A stretch of 64,000 bases of DNA from Verrucomicrobiota bacterium (GCA_046734175.1 JBKPQR010000031.1:2120-66119), one strand, 5' to 3'; shown: positions 29,827-54,185, counted from the stretch's first letter. The notes: a model not told the origin generated them from the sequence alone. Numbers and translations are program-made.

Positions 29827-30909
29827 TCATGCGGCCTTCTTTATGTGGGCTTCCGGCTGGAAGTGAACGGCAATCACCTTCAGCCGACGTACTCCGTACG
29901 GAACCGTCCAAGTAAACTCGTCGCCAACGCGATACCCGAGCATCGCTGTGCCGAGTGGTGCCAGAACTGAAATCTTGCGCACCTCAATGTCGGCATCGCG
30001 CGGGAAAACAACGGTGAATTCCATTCGCTCGCCGCTGTCCAAATCGAGGAGCTCGGCACGGCTGTTCATGGTGATCACGTCTGATGGAAGGTCCTTCGCT
30101 TCGACGATTTCGGCGCGAGCTAGCTCCGCTTTCAGCGCGCTCATCTCAGTGCGCCCGCGCTCGGAAAGCTTCCCGGCGGCCGCAATGGCGTAGGTCAGCT
30201 CTTCGTGGTCGGCAGCAGTCATCGTTATGGTACGTTTATTCATAGGTGTAGTTTGGATTGTTTGTAAGTCAGTTGGTTGAGTCGGTAATTTTGTTGGTCG
30301 CAATTCTCCCAAACCGGTCAACCTCGCGGGCGACGCTTGCTCAAGGAAATTGGGCTCGTTGCTCCGCAACGCTGCACGCACACGCTGCAAGTGTCCGCTG
30401 CCACTGTTATCAATTGGCAGCGGAATAAATAACGAATCGTAGATGGATTTACCGCGAGGCTTTTGTTCCTCCAAAGATGGAGGCGGAGTAGTTATTCGGC
30501 GCTGGACCTCGAAGCCCGCGTCGGTCATCCACACCGCGCGCTTCTTCATCTTAATCAGGCTGCCCAGCCGCATCATCCAAAGCCCAACCCATTCGCTCAC
30601 CAAGTGCGGAACATTAGCGCTACGAATTCGGCCCGCAGCAGGCTGCGCCCACCGCAATGCCGCACCGATCGCGATGGGATATGGATACGCCGCAAGAACA
30701 TTCAAGAGTCGAGCGCCTGGTTCGGTGCGCGCGAAGTAATCCACAATCAAATGTTGGAACGGGCGCAGGTTCTCGATGAGGCGTGGTGGACGCGTGCTAG
30801 GATTGCGACTTAGATCGTGCCGAATGAGCCAGCCGCCGAACAACAGCAGAGTAGCTCCGGTGAAGCCGAAGAGCGCGATTATGATAAGCGCGACGGACTC
30901 GGGTGTCAT
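29827..30909 (-). CDS. membrane-anchored protein with C-terminal GreA/GreB-family (Rnk-like) domain
   Basis: The last 138 aa (MNKRTITMTAADHEEL...VITMNSRAELLDLDSGE...ISVLAPLGTAMLGYRVGDEF...HFQPEA) align with E. coli Rnk. The N-terminal 220 aa are in the same frame, have one TM and no recognised domain. Confidence 0.7.
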   Translation of the reverse strand: MTPESVALIIIALFGFTGATLLLFGGWLIRHDLSRNPSTRPPRLIENLRPFQHLIVDYFARTEPGARLLNVLAAYPYPIAIGAALRWAQPAAGRIRSANVPHLVSEWVGLWMMRLGSLIKMKKRAVWMTDAGFEVQRRITTPPPSLEEQKPRGKSIYDSLFIPLPIDNSGSGHLQRVRAALRSNEPNFLEQASPARLTGLGELRPTKLPTQPTDLQTIQTTPMNKRTITMTAADHEELTYAIAAAGKLSERGRTEMSALKAELARAEIVEAKDLPSDVITMNSRAELLDLDSGERMEFTVVFPRDADIEVRKISVLAPLGTAMLGYRVGDEFTWTVPYGVRRLKVIAVHFQPEAHIKKAA

Positions 30910-30967: not shown

Positions 30968-31165
30968 TTATGCGTCGACAGCCTGTTGGCTTCCACTACC
31001 GACTCCAGTCCGAGCTGACGGCCACGATGTGGGAGAGGCCGGCCTGGTTTTCGCGGAGTAGCGTTTTGGTACCGGCGGTCCCAGCCAACGAAAGAGCCTT
31101 ACACAGAGTGCCCAGAGGATTAAAGTGACGAGTATCGCAATGAGGATGTAATCGAATAGTATCAT
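30968..31165 (-). CDS. small membrane protein (65 aa), hypothetical
   Basis: MILFDYILIAILVTLILWALCVRLFRWLG... It is similar to the 48-aa peptide at 35239-35385 and is the first ORF after box copy a. Confidence 0.4.
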   Translation of the reverse strand: MILFDYILIAILVTLILWALCVRLFRWLGPPVPKRYSAKTRPASPTSWPSARTGVGSGSQQAVDA

Positions 31166-31229
31166 TTTAAGGTGATTGTTTACGGGTTAATTATCTCTTA
31201 ACGCCTTAATGTTAGTCTGTGCAGCAACA

Positions 31230-31264
31230 TTGACTAAGACTTAGATTGAATCGGATAGATAGTA
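31230..31264 (-). promoter_or_regulatory. conserved box copy a (+ strand TTGACTAAGACT-N17-ATAGTA)
   Basis: Read directly. 64 nt upstream (minus sense) of the ATG at 31165. Confidence 0.45.
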
Positions 31265-31270
31265 CCCTAA

Positions 31271-31771
31271 TTAAACGGGCAAGCGTCGGCGCAATGGGAA
31301 TACCGGCATTTCCTGACCACCTCGTTTGCGGTGAGCGCGACTTGTGGCGACTGATGTCTGGTGAGATTTGCCTTTCGCTATCCGGCCGCGTTTTACCAGC
31401 GCGGAAAGATTGCGGATTCGTGATTGATCTTCTGAGTCAACAGCCGCATCCCTTCGCGCGCGCTTGAACTTCTTGGCTAATCGCGTTTTTCGTTTGCGGG
31501 CTAGCCTGGCCAGCTTCGCTACGAGCTGATCAATCGCCGTGTAAAGATTGTGGTGCACGGCGTTGCCATGAATATCGCGACCGGGCAGCGCTAATCGCGC
31601 GCTGATTGAGAACAGATGAGGCGTACCTGCCTTGCCTCGTAAAATAATTTCGGCCGTGAGCATGTCACCGGCGAAGCGGGATAAGCCCGACATTTTCTTG
31701 CGAATGAACTCGCGAAGCGCGGGACTCAAAGTGAGATCGTGAGGTGTGATATGTATAGGTGGATTGCTCAT
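31271..31771 (-). CDS. HPF/RaiA family ribosome-associated factor with basic C-terminal tail
   Basis: Start at MSNPPIHITPHDLTLSPALREFIRKKMSGLSRF...HHNLYTAIDQLVAKLARLARKRK fits the Ribosomal_S30AE pattern. Confidence 0.75.
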   Translation of the reverse strand: MSNPPIHITPHDLTLSPALREFIRKKMSGLSRFAGDMLTAEIILRGKAGTPHLFSISARLALPGRDIHGNAVHHNLYTAIDQLVAKLARLARKRKTRLAKKFKRARRDAAVDSEDQSRIRNLSALVKRGRIAKGKSHQTSVATSRAHRKRGGQEMPVFPLRRRLPV

Positions 31772-32306
31772 TTTGTTTGGGTTGGTTGCAGTCGTGTTGC
31801 CGTGAAGCCATTTGACGCGGTGAGGCCAAGGTCTTTCCGCCCTCATTTTCCCAGCGGCTGATCGCACTGGATCCGTTACGCACCGCGCCATTCGAAGAGG
31901 CACCGACATGTCTTTGATCGGGCCAGCATTCGGGAGCGCCCAGCCCTCCCGCCATGAATTCCAGCAACGCGGAACCGAAGCTGGCATAATGCGGCGTTTG
32001 GCGCTCAGGTCTGGCGTGATCCGGGCAGTCCGGTATGCCAAGGTGGTCTTTTACGAAGGTGACGAGCTCGGCAGCACTTTTTAGGTGAAGCGGCTTTACC
32101 TTCAATGAAGGACTCAAAGGTGGAGCGATCGGAATCGCACCTATCTGCGTTTCTACGATGCGACCATTGGCCGCTTGGTACAAATACCGCGCCGCTTGTT
32201 TGATCGCTGCGTCGCTGGTCCTGGCGTTGTCGTCTCTAGGAAGAGAAAGCGCCGTCGCCAAAACTTTTTCGAAAGGTTCGGACAGATCAATGACGATCAC
32301 ATTCAT
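31665..32306 (-). CDS. hypothetical protein with internal WENEGG motif
   Basis: 213-aa ORF and first gene after box copy b. Its last 107 nt overlap the HPF start in another frame. Confidence 0.45.
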   Translation of the reverse strand: MNVIVIDLSEPFEKVLATALSLPRDDNARTSDAAIKQAARYLYQAANGRIVETQIGAIPIAPPLSPSLKVKPLHLKSAAELVTFVKDHLGIPDCPDHARPERQTPHYASFGSALLEFMAGGLGAPECWPDQRHVGASSNGAVRNGSSAISRWENEGGKTLASPRQMASRQHDCNQPKQNEQSTYTYHTSRSHFESRASRVHSQENVGLIPLRR

Positions 32307-32334
32307 GCCGGCAGTTTAGTGCTGCCCAGATACT

Positions 32335-32369
32335 TCGACTAAGACTGGTATTCGATTAGACCGATAGAT
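32335..32369 (-). promoter_or_regulatory. conserved box copy b (+ strand TCGACTAAGACT-N17-ATAGAT)
   Basis: Read directly. 28 nt upstream (minus sense) of the ATG at 32306, in the divergent region shared with the LysR gene. Confidence 0.45.
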
Positions 32370-32391
32370 TCGAATTATGTATTGTTCAGCC

Positions 32392-33303
32392 ATGGAATGG
32401 CTGAATTATCATCACCTCCGCTACTTCTGGACCGTCGCTCGCAAAGGCGGCGTCCGGAAAGCGGCGGAGGAGCTTCATGTTTCACAACCTTCAATCAGTG
32501 CCCAGCTTCGCCTGCTGGAAGAATCACTCGGGCAAAAGCTCTTCCGTCGTAGTGGCCGCAACCTTGTTCTGACCGAAACGGGTCAGCTAGTCCTCAACTA
32601 CGCAGACGAAATCTTCTCGGCCGGCCGTGAGTTGATGAATGCAGTGAAGCAGCGGCCGGGTAAGCATCCGGTGCGCTTGAACATCGGGCTAACCGACGCA
32701 TTTCCCAAGCTGATCGCGTGGCAAATCCTGCGCGCTGCTTTCCGCTCCGATGAGCCGGTTCACGTCGTTTGCCGCGAAGGCGAGATTGGACCGCTGGTCA
32801 ACCATCTCCAGGCCCACCGGCTCGATATTGTCCTCGCCGATGAGCCAGCCTCGAGCAGTCTGAAAGCGAAGACATTCAATCACCGGCTCGGCGATTCAGG
32901 TCTCACCTTTTGTGCAGTTCCGGCTCTGGCCGCCAAACTTCGTCCCAACTTTCCGCAGTCACTTAATGGCGCACCTGCGCTCCTGCCGGCTACAAACATG
33001 GGAATGCGCGCCGCATTGGAGACTTGGTTTGATACTCACGAGATCCGTCCGCGGCTGGTCGGCGAGTTTGAGGATTCTGCGCTGATGGAAGTTTGCTCCT
33101 CGGGTGGTCGCGGCTTCACCGTCGTGCACACGGTGGTGGACCGAACGGCGCTAAAACACTACAACCTGCGCGTGATCGCGAAGGTGAAAGAGTGTCGAAG
33201 CGAGTTCTACGCCATCACGGCAGAGCGGCGGGTAAAACATCCCGCGGCTGTCGCGATTACTGAACACGCCTACTCGCATTTGTTCGCTGATTCCGACAAG
33301 TAA
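32392..33303 (+). CDS. LysR family transcriptional regulator (NhaR-like)
   Basis: MEWLNYHHLRYFWTVARKGGVRKAAEELHVSQPSISAQLRLLEESLGQKLF HTH followed by a LysR substrate-binding domain. Confidence 0.9.
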   Translation: MEWLNYHHLRYFWTVARKGGVRKAAEELHVSQPSISAQLRLLEESLGQKLFRRSGRNLVLTETGQLVLNYADEIFSAGRELMNAVKQRPGKHPVRLNIGLTDAFPKLIAWQILRAAFRSDEPVHVVCREGEIGPLVNHLQAHRLDIVLADEPASSSLKAKTFNHRLGDSGLTFCAVPALAAKLRPNFPQSLNGAPALLPATNMGMRAALETWFDTHEIRPRLVGEFEDSALMEVCSSGGRGFTVVHTVVDRTALKHYNLRVIAKVKECRSEFYAITAERRVKHPAAVAITEHAYSHLFADSDK

Positions 33304-33319
33304 GCGAGCAGCGGAATGC

Positions 33320-33691
33320 TTACGGCAGCAGAGCTCTGACGGTATGAATTGCAGGCCATACCAGGCCCGCGAGGATGATGATCGTGAAAAGCATTGCGTC
33401 CGTCATGAAGTTGTCGCGTGCCTGGCTGTTGTACTCCCGCAGCAGCTTGGGAAAAGTGCGCGGCCTTATGGTTGGTACGCCATTTCCTCGGGCGAGGTAA
33501 TCGGTACGACTGGCAGACCTGCGGTCTTCTTCCGTATACGCCGAGGCGCGCAAATGAGCGTTCATTGCCGCGACCTCTGGGGAGCGGTCGTTGTAATTCA
33601 CACCTGCGAATGCACGGCGTCGCCGTCGAAAGGAGGTGCCGAATGGCTCTCGGTAGTTAGTGCTTTGTTCTTGGTGGTTTGGGTTTGTCAT
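33320..33691 (-). CDS. hypothetical tail-anchored membrane protein
   Basis: 123-aa ORF, basic and disordered at the N-terminus, with a single C-terminal TM (AMLFTIIILAGLVWPAI). Confidence 0.45.
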   Translation of the reverse strand: MTNPNHQEQSTNYREPFGTSFRRRRRAFAGVNYNDRSPEVAAMNAHLRASAYTEEDRRSASRTDYLARGNGVPTIRPRTFPKLLREYNSQARDNFMTDAMLFTIIILAGLVWPAIHTVRALLP

Positions 33692-34093
33692 AGTCTTGGG
33701 TGATGATTGTTAAATAAAGTCTGCGAGTTCCGGCCGGAGCGTCACGCGGCTGCGCATTAGGCAGCAGCAGCGTGCATGAAACCTGGTTGCGTCCGATCTT
33801 TGTCACTCGGCTTCGCGAGGCGCACTGAAGTGTCTGGTTCCGGCAAGGCCCAGCCATGGTGAGCAAAGATCGCCTCGATAAAAATTCGCAGCCGCGGCAG
33901 ATTCATACCGCGCCGAGCGGCCAGGCGATAGACCCATTCAATCAGGCTGGAGTCTGGTGCGCAGGGTTGAGCGCGGGATCACAACTGGTTCCATGTTGCC
34001 GAAACGCAGCGTGATCTCATCAAGCGTGATTGCGACTTCGTTCCGCGATTCTTCGTCCATTATTACGAACGAAGGTAGCGGGACACGCAGTCT

Positions 34094-34128
34094 TCGACTA
34101 AGACTGATTCTTCAGCTGAATGATAGCT
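34094..34128 (-). promoter_or_regulatory. conserved box copy c (+ strand TCGACTAAGACT-N17-ATAGCT)
   Basis: Read directly. 34 nt upstream (minus sense) of an ATG at 34059. Confidence 0.45.
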
Positions 34129-34236
34129 TTACATTATCGACCCCAGAAGGGGCGGGACGTCACGCAGTCACCATATTACCGCGGTGCCGGTTTCGGCAGA
34201 AAAGTGACGGCGCGCGAGCAGCACGACGCTCGCGAA

Positions 34237-34692
34237 TCACGTTGAGCATGGAAGCACGCGCGTGCTCCCTTCTCGGCGGAGCCTCAGCGGTCGAAATGGC
34301 CGGCTGCTTTGATAGTGGACTTTTGTCACTTTCATCCGGCGAACACCTGCCGGCACCTGCCACTCAAACTCGTCGCCCACACGGTAGCCGAGCATGCCTG
34401 CGCCAATTGGCGCGAGGACGGAGATTTTGCCTGCTTCAACGTTCGCCTTGTCGGGAAACACGAGCGTAAACGTGAGTGCTTCGCGAGTGTCGAGGTCTAG
34501 CATCTCCGCGCGCGAATTCATTGTTATCACATCGGCTGGCACATCATTGGGATCGACGATTTCGGCACGCTTGACTTCTTCGACGAGAGCATTCAGGTCG
34601 CGGCGCGCGCGCGGATCGGAAACGGCCATCACGGCAAGCAGGTCATCGAGACGCTGTTTGTCCTGACTGGTAATAACGATTGGTCTTTTCAT
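34237..34692 (-). CDS. GreA/GreB-family Rnk-like protein (paralog 2)
   Basis: MKRPIVITSQDKQRLDDLL...VITMNSRAEMLDLDTRE...ISVLAPIGAGMLGYRVGDEFEWQVPAGVRRMKV is about two-thirds identical to the C-terminus of 29827-30909. The tail after HYQ diverges from the YQPEA ending. Confidence 0.8.
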   Translation of the reverse strand: MKRPIVITSQDKQRLDDLLAVMAVSDPRARRDLNALVEEVKRAEIVDPNDVPADVITMNSRAEMLDLDTREALTFTLVFPDKANVEAGKISVLAPIGAGMLGYRVGDEFEWQVPAGVRRMKVTKVHYQSSRPFRPLRLRREGSTRVLPCST

Positions 34693-34825
34693 GTGAAGGG
34701 GTCTTTCACGCTTCGTTAACGTGGCAGCGGCGGCCGAGAATAGATCGGAAGGCGAACGAGCGTCGAAGACTTTGATCGAATCAGAATCATCGCCTCAGCC
34801 TATCAGACGCATGAACTGCCACTGC

Positions 34826-35092
34826 TCAGGCCCACCTCAATATTTGCTCAGAAGAGGCAGCAGAGTCCACCGGCGGCTCCGGCCGCAGGGTCTCGACCCA
34901 TATAACGGCTCCAGCATGCAGTGCGACCGAAAGCACCAACGCCGCAACGACCGTCCATTTGCTCGGCGGTTCGTACCCCGCAGGCGGCACCACGTGCCGC
35001 TGGTGAGCCCGTTTTGTTGCTGGGGGCCGCCATACCCGGATCACCCGAGCGTCTGGCGCTACCTGCGAGGTCTTTAGTGTTGCTGTTTGCAT
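34826..35092 (-). CDS. short membrane protein, possibly a TonB N-terminal-like fragment
   Basis: Start at MQTATL. TM segment KWTVVAALVLSVALHAGAVIWV followed by PEPP. Only 88 aa, so it may be a remnant. Confidence 0.3.
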   Translation of the reverse strand: MQTATLKTSQVAPDARVIRVWRPPATKRAHQRHVVPPAGYEPPSKWTVVAALVLSVALHAGAVIWVETLRPEPPVDSAASSEQILRWA

Positions 35093-35238
35093 GATGAGTA
35101 TTTCGACAAGAGGGTTGATACGTCTCGCCAATATGACTCTCTCCACTTTCCTCGATTCGAATAAGACTTTGATCTGATCAAACGGATAGCTTCTCACTAA
35201 CTGTTGGAATTCGGCTAGATCGGCAAGCCCGCGGCAAT

Positions 35239-35385
35239 TTACCGAAAAGAACACTCGCTTCCGTCTGTCTCCTGTCGTTCGAACTCAGAAGAGCGGGAGC
35301 GGAGCCAGCCAACAAATAGGCGATAAACCGTGTAGCCAGCTGCGGCTACAACGCCGGCGAGCAAGAGATAATCGATGGTGTTCAC
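35239..35385 (-). CDS. possible 48-aa membrane peptide (GTG start)
   Basis: VNTIDYLLLAGVVAAAGYTVYRLFVGWLRSRSS... is similar to 30968-31165 (DY(I/L)L(I/L)A...RLF.WL). Begins 28 nt after box copy d. Not in the ORF track. Confidence 0.35.
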   Translation of the reverse strand: MNTIDYLLLAGVVAAAGYTVYRLFVGWLRSRSSEFERQETDGSECSFR

Positions 35386-35413
35386 GCCGGTTAGCCTCGC
35401 ATGAGCGGGTGCG

Positions 35414-35448
35414 TCGACTAAGACTCAGATATAATCACTCACATAGCT
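35414..35448 (-). promoter_or_regulatory. conserved box copy d (+ strand TCGACTAAGACT-N17-ATAGCT)
   Basis: Read directly. Confidence 0.45.
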
Positions 35449-35546
35449 TTATCCTATCTTGCTTCGCGGGACCAAGCCGATTTCAGCTCCACGCTTCGGC
35501 TTATGGGTGCAGAGCCGGCATTCACGGGAAGCCGGAGTAGCTCGAG

Positions 35547-39870: not shown

Positions 39871-40533
39871 TTATGCCGATGTCGCCTTCGTGATCGCCGC
39901 TTTCGTCGAGTCCACGTAAACGGTGGATTCATCGTAGCTGATCCGGGAAATTTTCTCCGTCGGTATGCGAATCTCTTTTCCAGAAAACCAATGTCCCGAT
40001 TCGACCACGATTTCGGCAATCTTCCACGTCCTTGCGTCCACCAGGAAGTCAGCCACCTCGCCGACGACTCCATCACTTGCTTCCACGTTGTAGCCTTTTA
40101 CCACACGCGTGCTGCGGAGATGTGAATCGGCTCCGCGTTCCTTTGCGGCGCTCGAAGGTGGAGGAGGAGCGACTACAGGATAACCCGCCAAGCCCCACAG
40201 TGGCCACGACTCTGCATAGTAGGGATAACCGTAATGACGATGAAATTCCTCTTCATGCTGGCGAGACACGGGTTTGTGTTCGTCGATCGATGGACTGTCT
40301 TCGATCTGTTTCCGAGTCAACTTCACGCCCAATACGCTTCCTTGCGGAGAAAGATGACCCAGCGCCTGCGGAGAAATCAGCACCAGGCGTCCGGTGAGCC
40401 ATCCACCGGTGTCGGCGACCAGATAGCGGACCGTCCAAGTCTTATCGTCGAAATAGAAGTCTCTAACTTGGCCGATCTCGCCGTCCGATGCGCGTAGTTT
40501 CTCGCCGTATCGTTGGTGAATGCTATGCAACAT
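39871..40533 (-). CDS. PRC-barrel domain protein (two barrels)
   Basis: LRASDGEIGQVRDFYFDDKTWTVRYLVADTGGWLTGRLVLISP plus a second copy, VEASDGVVGEVADFLVDARTWKIAEIVV. Confidence 0.85.
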   Translation of the reverse strand: MLHSIHQRYGEKLRASDGEIGQVRDFYFDDKTWTVRYLVADTGGWLTGRLVLISPQALGHLSPQGSVLGVKLTRKQIEDSPSIDEHKPVSRQHEEEFHRHYGYPYYAESWPLWGLAGYPVVAPPPPSSAAKERGADSHLRSTRVVKGYNVEASDGVVGEVADFLVDARTWKIAEIVVESGHWFSGKEIRIPTEKISRISYDESTVYVDSTKAAITKATSA

Positions 40534-40663
40534 AACGAATCCTCTTTTATCACCGCTCAGCACCCAGAGCCACGGCTTGTTCAGTGCCGATTAAGAAAAG
40601 TACCTCCGATAAACTCCGCGCGACAATTACGATTCGCGATAACGTTTTTCAGGTGAAAGCGAC

Positions 40664-45317: not shown

Positions 45318-46562
45318 ATGGCCACGTATGACTATCTCGTCATCGGTGGCGGGATGACGGCGGCAGCCGCAGCCGACGGCATTCGCGAAATCGATGCTCG
45401 CGGAAGAATCGGCATTATCAGCGCGGAGCCGGATGCGCCTTACAATCGTCCTCCGCTTTCGAAAGGATTGTGGAAAGGCGATGCGCTGGAAAGCGTCTGG
45501 CGTAAATCAACGGACAAGCTGCAGACGCTTCATTTGGGGTGTGTAGTCGAGAAAATCCTGCCCGCGGAGAAGCAGGTGGCCGACGCGACAGGAGAAATCT
45601 TCATTTACAACAAGCTGTTGCTCGCGACGGGCGGTTCGCCGCGTCGGCTGACTTTTGACGTCAGTGAAATAATTTACTTCCGCACGCTTTCCGACTACCG
45701 GCGTCTTCGCGCTTTAAGCGAGACGGGCGCCCGGTTCGCCGTCATCGGCGGCGGCTTCATCGGAACCGAAATCGCGGCAGCCCTGGCGATGAATGGAAAG
45801 GAGGTCGTGCTGATTTTCCCGGGCAAGGAAATTGGCGAGCGCCTCTTCCCTCGCGAATTAGCTCAGTACGTCTCCCGCGTTTACCGGCAAAAAGGCGTCG
45901 AGCTGGTTCCCGGTGAAAAGGTTGTTAAATCCGAGCCGCGGGGCAATCAGCACGTGCTCACAATCACGTCTGGTCGCAAGCTCGTCGTTGATGGGGTGGT
46001 CGCAGGCATCGGCATAGAGCCAGATATTGAGCTCGCGAAAACCGCGGGCGTGTCGACAAACAAAGGCATTATCGTCGATGAATTCCTTCGCACTTCGGTT
46101 CCGGATATCTACGCGGCCGGCGATGTCGCCGAGTTCTACAACCCGGCTTTGGGGAAACGGATGCGTGTCGAGCACGAAGACAACGCCAACTCCATGGGGC
46201 GATTGGCTGGCCGGAATATGGCGGGCATGAATGAACCGTATGACCACCTACCCTCGTTTTATTCCGACATGTTCGAGCTAGGATATGAAGCGGTCGGTGA
46301 AGTGGACTCCCGACTGGAGGCATTCGCTGACTGGAAGCGACTTAATGAGGAAGGCGTCATCTACTATTTAAAGGATGAACGCGTTCGAGGTGTGTTGCTT
46401 TGGAATGTGTGGGGGCAGGTTGACGCTGCGCGCGCGCTGATCGCAGAGCGTAGATCGTTCACGCGAGAGAATCTCAAAGGGCGCATACCGGGGGCGGTAC
46501 CGGCTGAGAAAGTCGACCTAACCGAAGGCTCTGCCGCTAACACTAAGGGCCAAACATGTTGA
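45318..46562 (+). CDS. FAD/NAD(P)-dependent oxidoreductase (ferredoxin-reductase/AIF-like)
   Basis: Two Rossmann motifs (IGGGMTAAAAA, IGGGFIGTEIAAAL) and AAGDVA. Confidence 0.9.
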   Translation: MATYDYLVIGGGMTAAAAADGIREIDARGRIGIISAEPDAPYNRPPLSKGLWKGDALESVWRKSTDKLQTLHLGCVVEKILPAEKQVADATGEIFIYNKLLLATGGSPRRLTFDVSEIIYFRTLSDYRRLRALSETGARFAVIGGGFIGTEIAAALAMNGKEVVLIFPGKEIGERLFPRELAQYVSRVYRQKGVELVPGEKVVKSEPRGNQHVLTITSGRKLVVDGVVAGIGIEPDIELAKTAGVSTNKGIIVDEFLRTSVPDIYAAGDVAEFYNPALGKRMRVEHEDNANSMGRLAGRNMAGMNEPYDHLPSFYSDMFELGYEAVGEVDSRLEAFADWKRLNEEGVIYYLKDERVRGVLLWNVWGQVDAARALIAERRSFTRENLKGRIPGAVPAEKVDLTEGSAANTKGQTC

Positions 46563-47245
46563 ATATCGCTCTGCCAGAGATTGAACAAATCGCGGGCTCC
46601 AGCACGAACGCGAGCGTGATACCGCTGCCGACACATCATTCGTTGCAAGCTCGGCGTTCAGCTTCGGTGACGATGTTCAAGCCCATTTGCACGCAACTGC
46701 CGCGCTGCAAGAAAGAGAATCTGGAACCGGTGATCGAACTCGCCGTCGAGATCGCGCGCGAAGGCCGGGAAGGCCGCCGAATCGGGACGCTGTTTACGTT
46801 TGGTGATGCCGAGGCGGTTTTAGCGCGCTCGCGTCCGCTCATCCTCGATCCGCTGGCCGGGCATTCCGATGAATTGCGCAACATTCGAAACGCGAACCTG
46901 CGCGGCACAGTCAAAGAGCTTGCCCAGCTCGATGGCGCTTTCGTGGTGTCGAACAGCGGCGTTGTCGTTTCCGCTTGTCGCTATCTCGATGCCATGGCGT
47001 CAGATGTTGTCCTTCCATTTGGGCTTGGGAGCCGCCACGTCGCCGGCGCTTCGATTTCCGCGGTGACAGAGGCAGTCGCGATCGTTGTATCAGAAAGCGC
47101 GATGGTCCGCGTTTTCGACAACGGCAGTCTCATCGCAGAAATCATTCCTGAGCTGTGGCTCCTGAGCCATCACGATGTGCAGTTACGCGGCCCACTGCTG
47201 GAAGAGCGGCAAGGCGACATTGCTGTCCTTGTCACGCGTCCATGA
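46556..47245 (+). CDS. DisA_N (diadenylate cyclase-like) domain protein
   Basis: LDGAFVVSNSGVVVSACRYL and GLGSRHVAGASISAVTEAVAIVVSESAMVRVF match the DAC-domain pattern, but RHV replaces RHR. The start may be 46673. Confidence 0.65.
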   Translation: MLNIALPEIEQIAGSSTNASVIPLPTHHSLQARRSASVTMFKPICTQLPRCKKENLEPVIELAVEIAREGREGRRIGTLFTFGDAEAVLARSRPLILDPLAGHSDELRNIRNANLRGTVKELAQLDGAFVVSNSGVVVSACRYLDAMASDVVLPFGLGSRHVAGASISAVTEAVAIVVSESAMVRVFDNGSLIAEIIPELWLLSHHDVQLRGPLLEERQGDIAVLVTRP

Positions 47246-51537: not shown

Positions 51538-52068
51538 TCAGTGGCGTGGCGTGCCGGCGCGGCTGGTTTCGAATAGAAACCACGTGCGGCGTTCCGTCTC
51601 GTCGATCCAATTCTCGATCAAACTGGCGGTCGCCACATCGCGATGTTCGTTGCAAACATCGTGCGCTTCTCTCAGCCGCGTGGCGAGCGTCTTGTTGTCC
51701 TCGCGAAGCTCCGCGACCATATCGAGCGGCTCGACGTAAGGCGCGTCGTTATCAGAGATGCGCTGCATCTTCGATATCTCGCCGATTGAATGCAGCGTCA
51801 TGACCCCGATTTTCCGCACGCGTTCGGCAATGTCGTCGGTCATCGCGAACAGCTGCTCGGCATGTTCATCGAGCAGCAGGTGATAATCGCGGAAATGCGG
51901 GCCGCTGACATGCCAGTGGAAGTTTTTCGTTTTGACATAAAGCGCGAAAACATCGGCCAGAAGCGCGTTCATCGCGCCGGCAATGTCTTTGATTGCCTCT
52001 GACCCAAGATCGGTTGGGGTAATGAGCGGAGCTTCAAATTTTCGGAGGACTGATTCGTTCTTTTTCAT
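51538..52068 (-). CDS. dps: Dps (DNA starvation/stationary phase protection protein)
   Basis: KTKNFHWHVSGPHFRDYHLLLDEH ferroxidase-centre region. Start at MKKNESV. Confidence 0.9.
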   Translation of the reverse strand: MKKNESVLRKFEAPLITPTDLGSEAIKDIAGAMNALLADVFALYVKTKNFHWHVSGPHFRDYHLLLDEHAEQLFAMTDDIAERVRKIGVMTLHSIGEISKMQRISDNDAPYVEPLDMVAELREDNKTLATRLREAHDVCNEHRDVATASLIENWIDETERRTWFLFETSRAGTPRH

Positions 52069-52257
52069 AGTGGATGGTGGCTGTTGGGTTGATAGAGCGA
52101 AAATGCAGAGCCGGAACGTAACCACGCCCTGCGCGGGCGAAAGAGAAGCATCGCCGTTTCACGTCCAGCTCCATAGTGGTATCGGATTTCCGTTCGCAAA
52201 CGGATTGCGAACAAGTCGACGAGTTGGTCGCCCGGAGTTCAATTCTTCACGTCCAGA

Positions 52258-52958: not shown

Positions 52959-53876
52959 ATGTCTGAAAAAGCGCAACTTGTTGTCGATGGGAAGAAGCTC
53001 GCGGTATCGAATCTGAACAAGGTTCTTTATCCCAAAGCCGGGTTCACCAAGGGACAAGTCATCGATTACTACATTCGGATCGCTCCGGTGCTGCTCCCGC
53101 ATTTGCGAGACCGGCCGCTGACGATGAAGCGCTATCCGAACGGAGTTGATGGCGAGTTTTTCTACGAAAAGAATTGCCCGGCGCACCGGCCATCGTGGGT
53201 GAAGACCGCCAAGGTGTGGAGTGAAGGCAATCAGCGCGACATGTATTACTGCCTGGCGCAAGATTTGCCGACACTGGTCTGGGCCGCCAATCTCGCCGAC
53301 CTCGAGCTCCATACCTCGTTAGCGCGCAAGAAAAACGTCGCTCAACCGACCATGATGGTGTTCGATCTCGATCCCGGACCGCCGGCAGATATCGTGCAGT
53401 GCTGTCAGGTCGGCATCTGGCTGCGCGACCTCCTCACGGGAATTAAGCTGAGAAGCTTTGCGAAAACGAGCGGCTCGAAGGGTCTGCAAGTTTACGTCCC
53501 GCTGAATACGCCAGCGACATTCGATGAGACGAAGGCATTATCACGCGCGCTGGCTGAGCTTCTCGAGCGCGAACATGGAGATCTTGTTGTTTCAAAGATG
53601 CTCAAAGCATTGCGCACGGGAAAGGTGCTGGTCGACTGGAGCCAGAACGACGAGCATAAGACAACCGTGTGCGTCTATTCGCTGCGAGCGAAGGATGAGC
53701 CAACCGTCTCGACCGCTGTGACGTGGGAGGAGGTGGAGAATTGCTTGAAAAAAAAGAAGGCCGAACTGCTGAAGTTCAAGTCGGATCAGGTGATTGCCCG
53801 CGTTGAAAAGATGAATGATCTTTTCGCGCCTGTGCAGGAGCTAAAACAAAAGCTACCGCGCAAGTGGGAGTTGTAG
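52959..53876 (+). CDS. LigD polymerase/primase domain protein (NHEJ)
   Basis: LAVSNLNKVLYPKAGFTKGQVIDYY, RYPNGVDGEFFYEKN, VFDLDPG and SGSKGLQVYVPL are the PolDom hallmarks. Confidence 0.85.
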   Translation: MSEKAQLVVDGKKLAVSNLNKVLYPKAGFTKGQVIDYYIRIAPVLLPHLRDRPLTMKRYPNGVDGEFFYEKNCPAHRPSWVKTAKVWSEGNQRDMYYCLAQDLPTLVWAANLADLELHTSLARKKNVAQPTMMVFDLDPGPPADIVQCCQVGIWLRDLLTGIKLRSFAKTSGSKGLQVYVPLNTPATFDETKALSRALAELLEREHGDLVVSKMLKALRTGKVLVDWSQNDEHKTTVCVYSLRAKDEPTVSTAVTWEEVENCLKKKKAELLKFKSDQVIARVEKMNDLFAPVQELKQKLPRKWEL

Positions 53877-54087: not shown

Positions 54088-54185
54088 GGAAAAAGAATCT
54101 TAGATTGTAGATTTACGATTGCTGATTGCAAATAACCGCCAGGCGCGGTCAAGAAGCACGGTTCTTGATCGGGGCCTGCTCCGGT

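Follow-up and report, generated by a model that had tools for sequence, protein, structure and literature searches.

A repeated motif upstream of a compact gene island in a Verrucomicrobiota bacterium: a candidate composite operator-promoter for an NhaR-like LysR-type regulator

Which factor recognises a nearly invariant box that recurs upstream of minus-strand genes in a Verrucomicrobiota bacterium? The window analysed is a 64,000 nucleotide stretch of one assembly (GCA_046734175.1 JBKPQR010000031.1:2120-66119), and all coordinates are counted from its first letter. A preliminary description of this DNA had listed four copies of the box between 31230 and 35448, each a 12-mer and a hexamer separated by 17 nucleotides, and had offered a dedicated alternative-sigma promoter, a transcription-factor site or a conserved 5′ leader element as explanations. 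From the sequence comparisons reported here, each copy is likely to be a composite operator-promoter for the neighbouring NhaR-like LysR-type transcriptional regulator (LTTR), in which the operator is fused to an activator-dependent promoter of the sigma-70 type. The transcription-factor option, which had been tied to the same LysR gene, is the one that fits best, with a T-N11-A dyad inside the motif and linkage of the motif to a LysR gene at 29 of 29 loci.

Copies and anatomy of the motif

The four copies were present on the minus strand where they had been placed, and the spacing of 17 was exact. The pattern CTAT-N17-AGTCTTAKTCRA, searched with up to one mismatch allowed, gave 5 matches in the window, every one with 0 mismatches, against 0.00 expected from 100 dinucleotide-preserving shuffles. 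A position-weight matrix (PWM) derived from related sites scored exactly six sites at ≥14 bits over the whole 64 kb; all belong to the minus strand and to the interval 31228-35458, so that six co-oriented copies are packed within 4.2 kb. Two of these had been overlooked, a strong fifth copy (35159-35200) and a degenerate sixth (34762-34803). The hexamer had been given as ATAG[ACT]T in all copies. Copy a has ATAGTA instead; the five strong copies have the CTAT core alone in common at this place, and the degenerate sixth has CGAT. The 12-mer and the hexamer are real, but conservation covers a stretch of ∼42 bp that includes them, and a -10 box follows further downstream; the repeated box is thus the core of a predicted promoter of ∼65 bp.

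Loci for comparison were gathered from soil metagenomes by relatives of Rnk-like paralog 2, one of the window genes described below, and the box recurs many times in the 64 loci obtained. The anatomy was taken from an alignment of 103 non-redundant sites, and the -10 boxes were tallied over 151 unique sites. The consensus of the 103 sites is ATAR-N7-CTATC-N6-ATCGAAT-N3-AGTCTTAGTC, with information peaks at ATAR, a single A, CTATC, a single T, ATCGAAT and AGTCTTAGTC, and a weaker TAAAnT 17 bp past the end. Four core blocks (ATAR, CTAT, ATCG and GTCT) are spaced exactly 11 bp from start to start, and the centre between ATAR and CTAT is A-rich. Apart from the -10 box, positions beyond -75 to -27 carry no information.

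Positions are counted from the predicted transcription start, taken as ∼7 nt past the -10 box. The dyad, ATA(G)-N7-(C)TAT, occupies -71 to -57 (centre -64) and is followed by ATCGAAT at -49 to -43 and by the 10-mer AGTCTTAGTC, the most conserved part of the motif, at -39 to -30. The T-N11-A arrangement is found in the 103 sites, with A-71 in 94, T-70 in 103 and A-69 in 103 for the left arm, and T-59 in 102, A-58 in 103 and T-57 in 97 for the right arm. A fourth dyad pair (G-68/C-60) is possible in at most 48 of the 103. The tetramer GATC is common within the motif at -50 to -47 (G 54, A 93, T 103 and C 81 of 103) and could be a methylation site.

Copy a (31232-31273, minus strand, 28 bits) reads TAAT..CTAT..ATTCAAT..AGTCTTAGTC over positions -71 to -30 and has a degenerate distal half-site (TAAT). 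Copy b (32337-32378, minus strand, 53 bits) reads ATAA-N7-CTAT-N7-ATCGAAT-N3-AGTCTTAGTC and is common to the divergent LysR gene. Copy c (34096-34137, minus strand) scored 41 bits; its gap to the first start codon, previously put at 34 nt, was measured as 33 nt. The degenerate copy f (34762-34803, minus strand, 30 bits) reads ATAG-N7-CGAT-N7-ATTCGAT-N3-AGTCTTCGAC, in bipartite form GCGAT-N17-AGTCTTCGAC, and lies upstream of Rnk-like paralog 2, whose orthologues have a strong copy at the same position. Copy e (35159-35200, minus strand, 50 bits) reads TTAG-N7-CTAT..AGTCTTATTC, or TCGAATAAGACT-N17-ATAGCT on the plus strand (35157-35191), and lies upstream of a gene for a TonB-like stub that starts at 35092. 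Copy d (35416-35457, minus strand, 45 bits) reads ATAG-N7-CTAT..AGTCTTAGTC. The genes that had been grouped as a single string behind copy d form three units with one motif copy each (d, e and f). No sequence conservation was seen between the flanks of the window copies. A reading of the box as a plus-strand promoter was rejected, as a plus-strand gene is present only at copy b and a minus-strand start codon follows every copy.

The divergent LysR-type gene

The protein proposed to bind the motif is the product of the gene divergent from copy b (32392-33303, plus strand), whose start codon is 13 nt away from the edge of that copy. This 303-aa product carries LysR helix-turn-helix and substrate-binding domains and, with 223.5 bits, passed the NCBIfam equivalog model NF008284 (NhaR), for which the cutoff is 219. 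PcaQ came next among the models, at 92 bits where 304 would have been required. Annotations of close homologues read NhaR or 'activator of nhaA'; one of these homologues, with 93% identity, is from a Chthoniobacterales genome. The regulator is very common in soil metagenomes.

In all 29 of 29 related loci in which the N-terminus of the regulator was present (73-90% identity), a motif copy lay 9-14 nt from the regulator start codon on the opposite strand. The gene across from the regulator at this copy differs among the loci. Within the protein, the DNA-binding domain has 68% invariant positions vs 39% in the effector domain, as would suit an operator that does not vary. The promoter predicted for the regulator gene itself (32356-32385, plus strand) consists of TTAGAC (32356-32361), an 18-bp spacer and TATTGT (32380-32385), with 6 nt to the ATG. 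Regulator-adjacent copies in relatives read TTAGAC-N18-TAnnnT, with the regulator start codon 6-7 nt further on. The LysR dyad lies within the spacer of this promoter, so that bound regulator would block it; the predicted layout is the classical one for autorepression.

An LTTR regulatory site near -65, activation sites over the -35 box and divergent regulator genes are typical of the class (PMC11495319). When numbered from the predicted -10 box and start, the window motif would have an LTTR-like geometry, as the dyad is then centred at -64 and the proximal blocks fall between -50 and -30. It shares with classical divergent operator-promoters (BenM, CbnR and OccR; PMC11495319) a T-N11-A dyad, predicted to lie near -65 with a second site over the predicted -35 hexamer, a copy common to the divergent regulator gene with the dyad placed to repress, and the use of the same site at several targets. 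It differs from them in a promoter-proximal part that is more invariant than the dyad, in its six co-oriented copies in 4.2 kb, and in the predicted lack of a leader at many targets and at the regulator itself.

The published in-silico box of E. coli NhaR, TCgaAAAAatCtA (PMC6307784), is likewise an A-rich T-N11-A box and resembles TARnnAAAAnCTA of the window motif. The E. coli NhaR regulon (nhaA, osmC and pgaABCD; high salt and high pH) and the window have in common a regulator that passes the NhaR model and a stress theme. They differ in that the window score is barely over the cutoff, no nhaA was seen under the motif, and the window targets are the ribosome hibernation factor HPF, Rnk-like proteins and small membrane peptides. 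In E. coli, moreover, nhaR is located downstream of nhaA and is not divergent from its target, which differs from the window regulator. One Na_H_Exchanger (PF00999) gene was present in one related island.

The block layout also recalls OxyR, for which the E. coli tetramer consensus is ATAG-N7-CTAT-N7-ATAG-N7-CTAT. Both sites have four 4-mers at exact 11-bp steps, of which the first two are ATAR and CTAT, and the pattern used for the genome scan described below also caught conserved Brevundimonas katG upstream regions. Blocks 3 and 4 of the window motif are, however, ATCG and GTCT and not ATAG and CTAT, and the regulator failed the OxyR model (52 bits vs a cutoff of 329).

Predicted promoters and competing readings

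The spacing within the box had been judged unfit for sigma-70 in either orientation. The last six bases of the box, TTAGTC, together with a TAnnnT box 17-19 bp downstream do fit, and TTAGTC is predicted to occupy the -35 position of a sigma-70-type promoter. Of the sites with a short leader, 64% had TAnnnT 17-19 bp past the motif, and of those with a long leader 87%; any other offset gave ∼0-4%. The distance of this box is fixed relative to the motif, not relative to the start codon. TTAGTC followed by TAnnnT at 17-19 bp was counted in 109 of the 151 unique sites. As these lie upstream of ∼23 gene clusters and carry varied hexamers, the -10 box is not simply inherited sequence. A scan for the sigma-70 consensus found no promoter at the motif sites, where it is blind because TTAGTC matches TTGACA at 2/6 positions; the promoter was visible only once many sites had been aligned. 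The tRNA-Ala gene of the window (54088-54160, minus strand) has a canonical-looking promoter, TTGCAA-N16-TACAAT. TTAGTC is by this comparison a deviant -35 hexamer, and the tRNA promoter hints that E. coli-like boxes are what the housekeeping sigma recognises in this organism.

The predicted -10 boxes of the window are all on the minus strand. Copy a has TAACAT (31209-31214, spacer 17), with a predicted leader of ∼36 nt ahead of the start codon at 31165. Copy b has TAAACT (32313-32318, spacer 18), with 6 nt between this box and the ATG (32306), so that a leaderless mRNA is predicted. Copies c and f have TACCTT (34072-34077, spacer 18) and TATTCT (34737-34742, spacer 19). The boxes of copies e and d are weak: GAGAGT (35136-35141, spacer 17), which is TAGAGT in orthologues, and GAGGCT (35393-35398, spacer 17), which ends 7 nt before the GTG at 35385. 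Across the sites the commonest distance from the motif end to the start codon is 27-30 nt, which places the start codon 3-7 nt past the -10 box, at the predicted transcription start. Shine-Dalgarno-like tetramers are rare upstream of motif-borne genes, and the geometry suggests that many of the mRNAs are leaderless.

In the operator-promoter reading, a tetramer of the regulator would bind the ATAR-N7-CTAT dyad as its high-affinity recognition site (centre ∼-64) and would also occupy a promoter-proximal activation site, ATCGAAT...AGTC (∼-50 to -36), that abuts or overlaps the non-canonical -35 hexamer TTAGTC (-35 to -30). The 10-mer may double as activation site and non-canonical -35 box. RNA polymerase with a sigma-70-type factor would use TTAGTC and the TAnnnT box 17-19 bp downstream; with a 2/6 match to TTGACA, such a promoter should depend on the bound activator. 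Transcription would start 6-7 nt past the -10 box; in the class of sites seen most often this point coincides with the start codon, and a leaderless mRNA would result. At copy b, where the dyad lies in the spacer of the divergent TTAGAC-N18-TATTGT, the regulator would repress its own gene while activating the other side. The six co-oriented units would make up a compact regulon, whose products are HPF, small membrane peptides, unknown proteins and two Rnk-like secondary-channel proteins, one of them anchored in the membrane. Judged by the homology to NhaR, cation, pH or osmotic stress may be the inducing signal.

Several points weigh against this reading. The promoter-proximal 10-mer is more invariant than the dyad, whereas the activation site is the degenerate part of a classic LTTR site, and the second block pair, ATCG/GTCT, is not a dyad. 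TTAGTC matches TTGACA poorly (2/6). The promoter positions all depend on where the -10 box is predicted, and in copies d and e of the window this box is without its first T. The NhaR assignment exceeds the cutoff by 4.5 bits, a small margin, and an nhaA gene was not seen downstream of any motif copy examined. The apparent composition of the regulon is biased, because the loci were collected via an Rnk homologue or the motif itself.

An alternative that we regard as unlikely is a promoter that needs two factors, in which the dyad binds the LTTR and AGTCTTAGTC/TTAGTC is the -35 element of a dedicated alternative sigma, the TAnnnT -10 box being shared with the housekeeping sigma. It would account for the 10-mer being the most conserved part of the motif and for the 2/6 match of TTAGTC to TTGACA in a window whose tRNA promoter looks canonical, and the regulator's own promoter has a similar hexamer, TTAGAC. 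However, no sigma-factor family was among the recurring families of 102 open reading frames (ORFs) from ten related islands (families of single occurrence are listed in part), and the annotated part of the window, 26-58 kb, showed no sigma factor. Poor -35 boxes are, moreover, ordinary at activator-dependent LTTR promoters (PMC11495319), and the 11-bp register of the four blocks fits a single tetramer. A wider form of the same idea is also doubtful. Here the NhaR-like LTTR and a dedicated recognition of the invariant AGTCTTAGTC, whether through a sigma region 4 specialised for it or through an unusual contact between the LTTR and RNA polymerase, would act as a two-key dormancy switch in Candidatus Udaeobacter and Chthoniobacterales, a dominant lineage in soil. 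The switch would fire mostly leaderless mRNAs for HPF, for Rnk-like proteins both free and tethered to the membrane, and for tiny membrane peptides. If this were true, one ionic or desiccation signal would reprogramme transcription and translation together.

Rather less probable is a promoter for a dedicated sigma of the extracytoplasmic function (ECF) or general-stress type, the first of the earlier options, with CTATC as -35, GTCTTA as -10 and a start a few bases past the box. In its favour, the motif has two parts at a fixed spacing of 17, the cargo is stress-like, and a GTC-containing -10-like box resembles some ECF promoters. General-stress sigma regulons are exemplified by alphaproteobacterial EcfG, with GGAAC-N16/17-CGTT, and by Firmicute SigB. 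As in these, a tightly conserved box lies upstream of HPF and other stress-type genes, in relatives also of DUF4142 and PRC-barrel genes. Conserved blocks in an 11-bp register nevertheless occur ahead of the supposed -35 (ATAR, 11 bp upstream of it) and within what would be the spacer (ATCGAAT), and the supposed -35 has no AAC motif. The sequence evidence indicates that the two boxes are not themselves a -35/-10 pair: they lie upstream of a separate TAnnnT box, which 109 of 151 sites have at a distance of 17-19 bp. Neither a sigma nor an anti-sigma gene recurred among the ten islands, and an ECF-type promoter would leave the 29/29 linkage to a LysR gene unexplained; the window box has a LysR dyad and a LysR gene where EcfG and SigB regulons have a sigma/anti-sigma module.

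A transcribed 5′ leader or RNA element acting on the mRNA, the third of the earlier options, is very improbable. The fixed orientation and the closeness to start codons would suit it, but there were no Rfam matches at E-values up to 1, RNAalifold gave zero consensus pairs across 24 diverse sites, the conserved blocks have the 11-bp period of the DNA helix, and the predicted -10 box lies downstream of the motif, which places the box ahead of the predicted start. A dispersed repeat or remnant of a miniature inverted-repeat transposable element can be dismissed almost entirely: six copies on one strand within 4.2 kb might suggest it, but the flanks are unrelated, conservation is confined to discrete blocks, copies occur at orthologous promoter positions across a bacterial order, and no terminal repeats were noticed on inspection of the sequence, no dedicated repeat search having been run.

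Distribution and genes of the island

A scan of one genome per species with an 18-base exact pattern returned 62 matches, of which 32 were in Chthoniobacterales, Candidatus Udaeobacter, Terrimicrobiaceae or other soil Verrucomicrobiota. Across Chthoniobacterales and Candidatus Udaeobacter, motif copies occupy orthologous promoter positions. Six further matches were on short contigs binned to other phyla. These contigs of metagenome-assembled genomes (L065, L118, L091, L092, L103 and L126) are labelled Gemmatimonadaceae, Pyrinomonadaceae, Binatia, Acidoferrum and Blastocatellia; as they carry the same regulator (85-90% identity where the N-terminus is present) or regulon genes, they are probably mis-binned Chthoniobacterales DNA. 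The remaining matches were mostly single and in unrelated taxa. Three non-verrucomicrobial matches (L073, L077 and L101) adjoin other divergent LysR genes. In Brevundimonas and other alphaproteobacteria (L068, L079, L081, L098 and L114, and also L071) the matching sequence is ATAA-N7-CTAT-N7-ATCA-N7-GTCTTAG upstream of katG-like ORFs, and it looks like an OxyR-type site; within the fetched DNA, no divergent LysR gene adjoined these matches. The position of the outside-clade matches near LysR or katG-like genes indicates that the upstream half of the motif is a generic LTTR design.

In kind, the proposed circuit is an ordinary LysR-type one of a well-known class, with a divergent regulator predicted to be autoregulated. 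Its interest lies in the little-known organism, in the cargo of ribosome hibernation and RNA-polymerase secondary-channel factors, and in the predicted leaderless architecture. Chthoniobacterales and Candidatus Udaeobacter are among the most abundant soil bacteria and are essentially uncultured (PMC7343977). A search of the literature on Udaeobacter promoters and leaderless transcription in Verrucomicrobia found no description of a promoter, operator or regulon for Chthoniobacterales or Candidatus Udaeobacter, and a 2026 Udaeobacter metatranscriptome preprint does not mention the regulon genes. The analysis yields an exact sequence for the candidate operator, a named candidate for its regulator, a promoter model with predicted leaderless starts, and a compact stress regulon that would join ribosome hibernation by HPF with RNA-polymerase secondary-channel factors. 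The position-weight model can be used for regulon annotation in hundreds of metagenome-assembled genomes.

The first gene past copy a encodes a 65-aa membrane peptide (30968-31165, minus strand) and is followed by that of a membrane-anchored Rnk-like protein (29827-30909, minus strand), with a GreA/GreB C-terminal domain at residues 275-349 and an NCBIfam Rnk match at 223-355. This protein has an N-terminal membrane helix and ∼200 residues without a family match ahead of the Rnk/GreA-GreB C-terminal domain. Relatives have proteins of the same membrane-tethered architecture (322-409 aa), which is unusual for a secondary-channel factor. Past copy b, a 213-aa protein with an RWENEGG motif and no family match (31665-32306, minus strand) precedes the ribosome hibernation factor of the HPF/RaiA family (PF02482; 31271-31771, minus strand). 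The last 107 nt of the 213-aa ORF (31665-31771) are also the first of the HPF gene, which starts at 31771 and is read in another frame. Homologues of the 213-aa ORF range from ∼60 to ∼220 aa, so that its true end is uncertain.

Compared with a conserved family whose members have 105-125 aa, the first gene past copy c (33832-34060, minus strand) is frameshifted near 33946, the alignment changing frame between family residues 4-39 and 40-77; it is either a pseudogene or the product of a sequencing error. It is followed by a 123-aa tail-anchored protein (33320-33691, minus strand) whose homologues in relatives have their own motif copy. Copy d precedes a 48-aa membrane peptide, MNTIDYLLL... (35239-35385, minus strand), copy e the 88-aa TonB-like stub (34826-35092, minus strand), and copy f Rnk-like paralog 2 (34237-34692, minus strand), which has Rnk_N and GreA_GreB C-terminal domains and matches NCBIfam NF004396 with 115 bits.

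The cargo had been likened to general-stress regulons. This broadly stands for HPF, the Rnk-like proteins and the small membrane peptides, and DUF4142 and PRC-barrel genes are motif-borne in relatives, but the Dps, PRC-barrel and DUF4142 genes of the window had no upstream site in the PWM scan. Stress-type genes near the island and without a motif copy include those for a PRC-barrel protein (39871-40563), a diadenylate cyclase domain (46556-47245), a Dps/ferritin-like protein (51538-52125) and a LigD primase-polymerase (52959-53876).

Among the 102 ORFs of the ten related islands, the most frequent Pfam families were GreA_GreB (9), LysR (7) and HPF (4). Families that recur as the first gene past the motif in relatives are Rnk-like proteins (free or membrane-anchored), TonB-like stubs, HPF, PRC-barrel, a cyclic nucleotide monophosphate (cNMP)-binding protein, small membrane peptides of the DYLLL type (sometimes followed by DUF4142), IDLSEPFEK/RWENEGG proteins, a 'MIALLTYPT' family, RWENEGG-globin fusions, an M90 peptidase and an FNR-like reductase. 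The RWENEGG/WENEGG peptide had no family match, and a literature search for it returned nothing relevant. It recurs in otherwise unrelated regulon proteins (L072:2196-2837; L082, L103, L109 and L118), among them the N-terminal extension of a bacterial globin.

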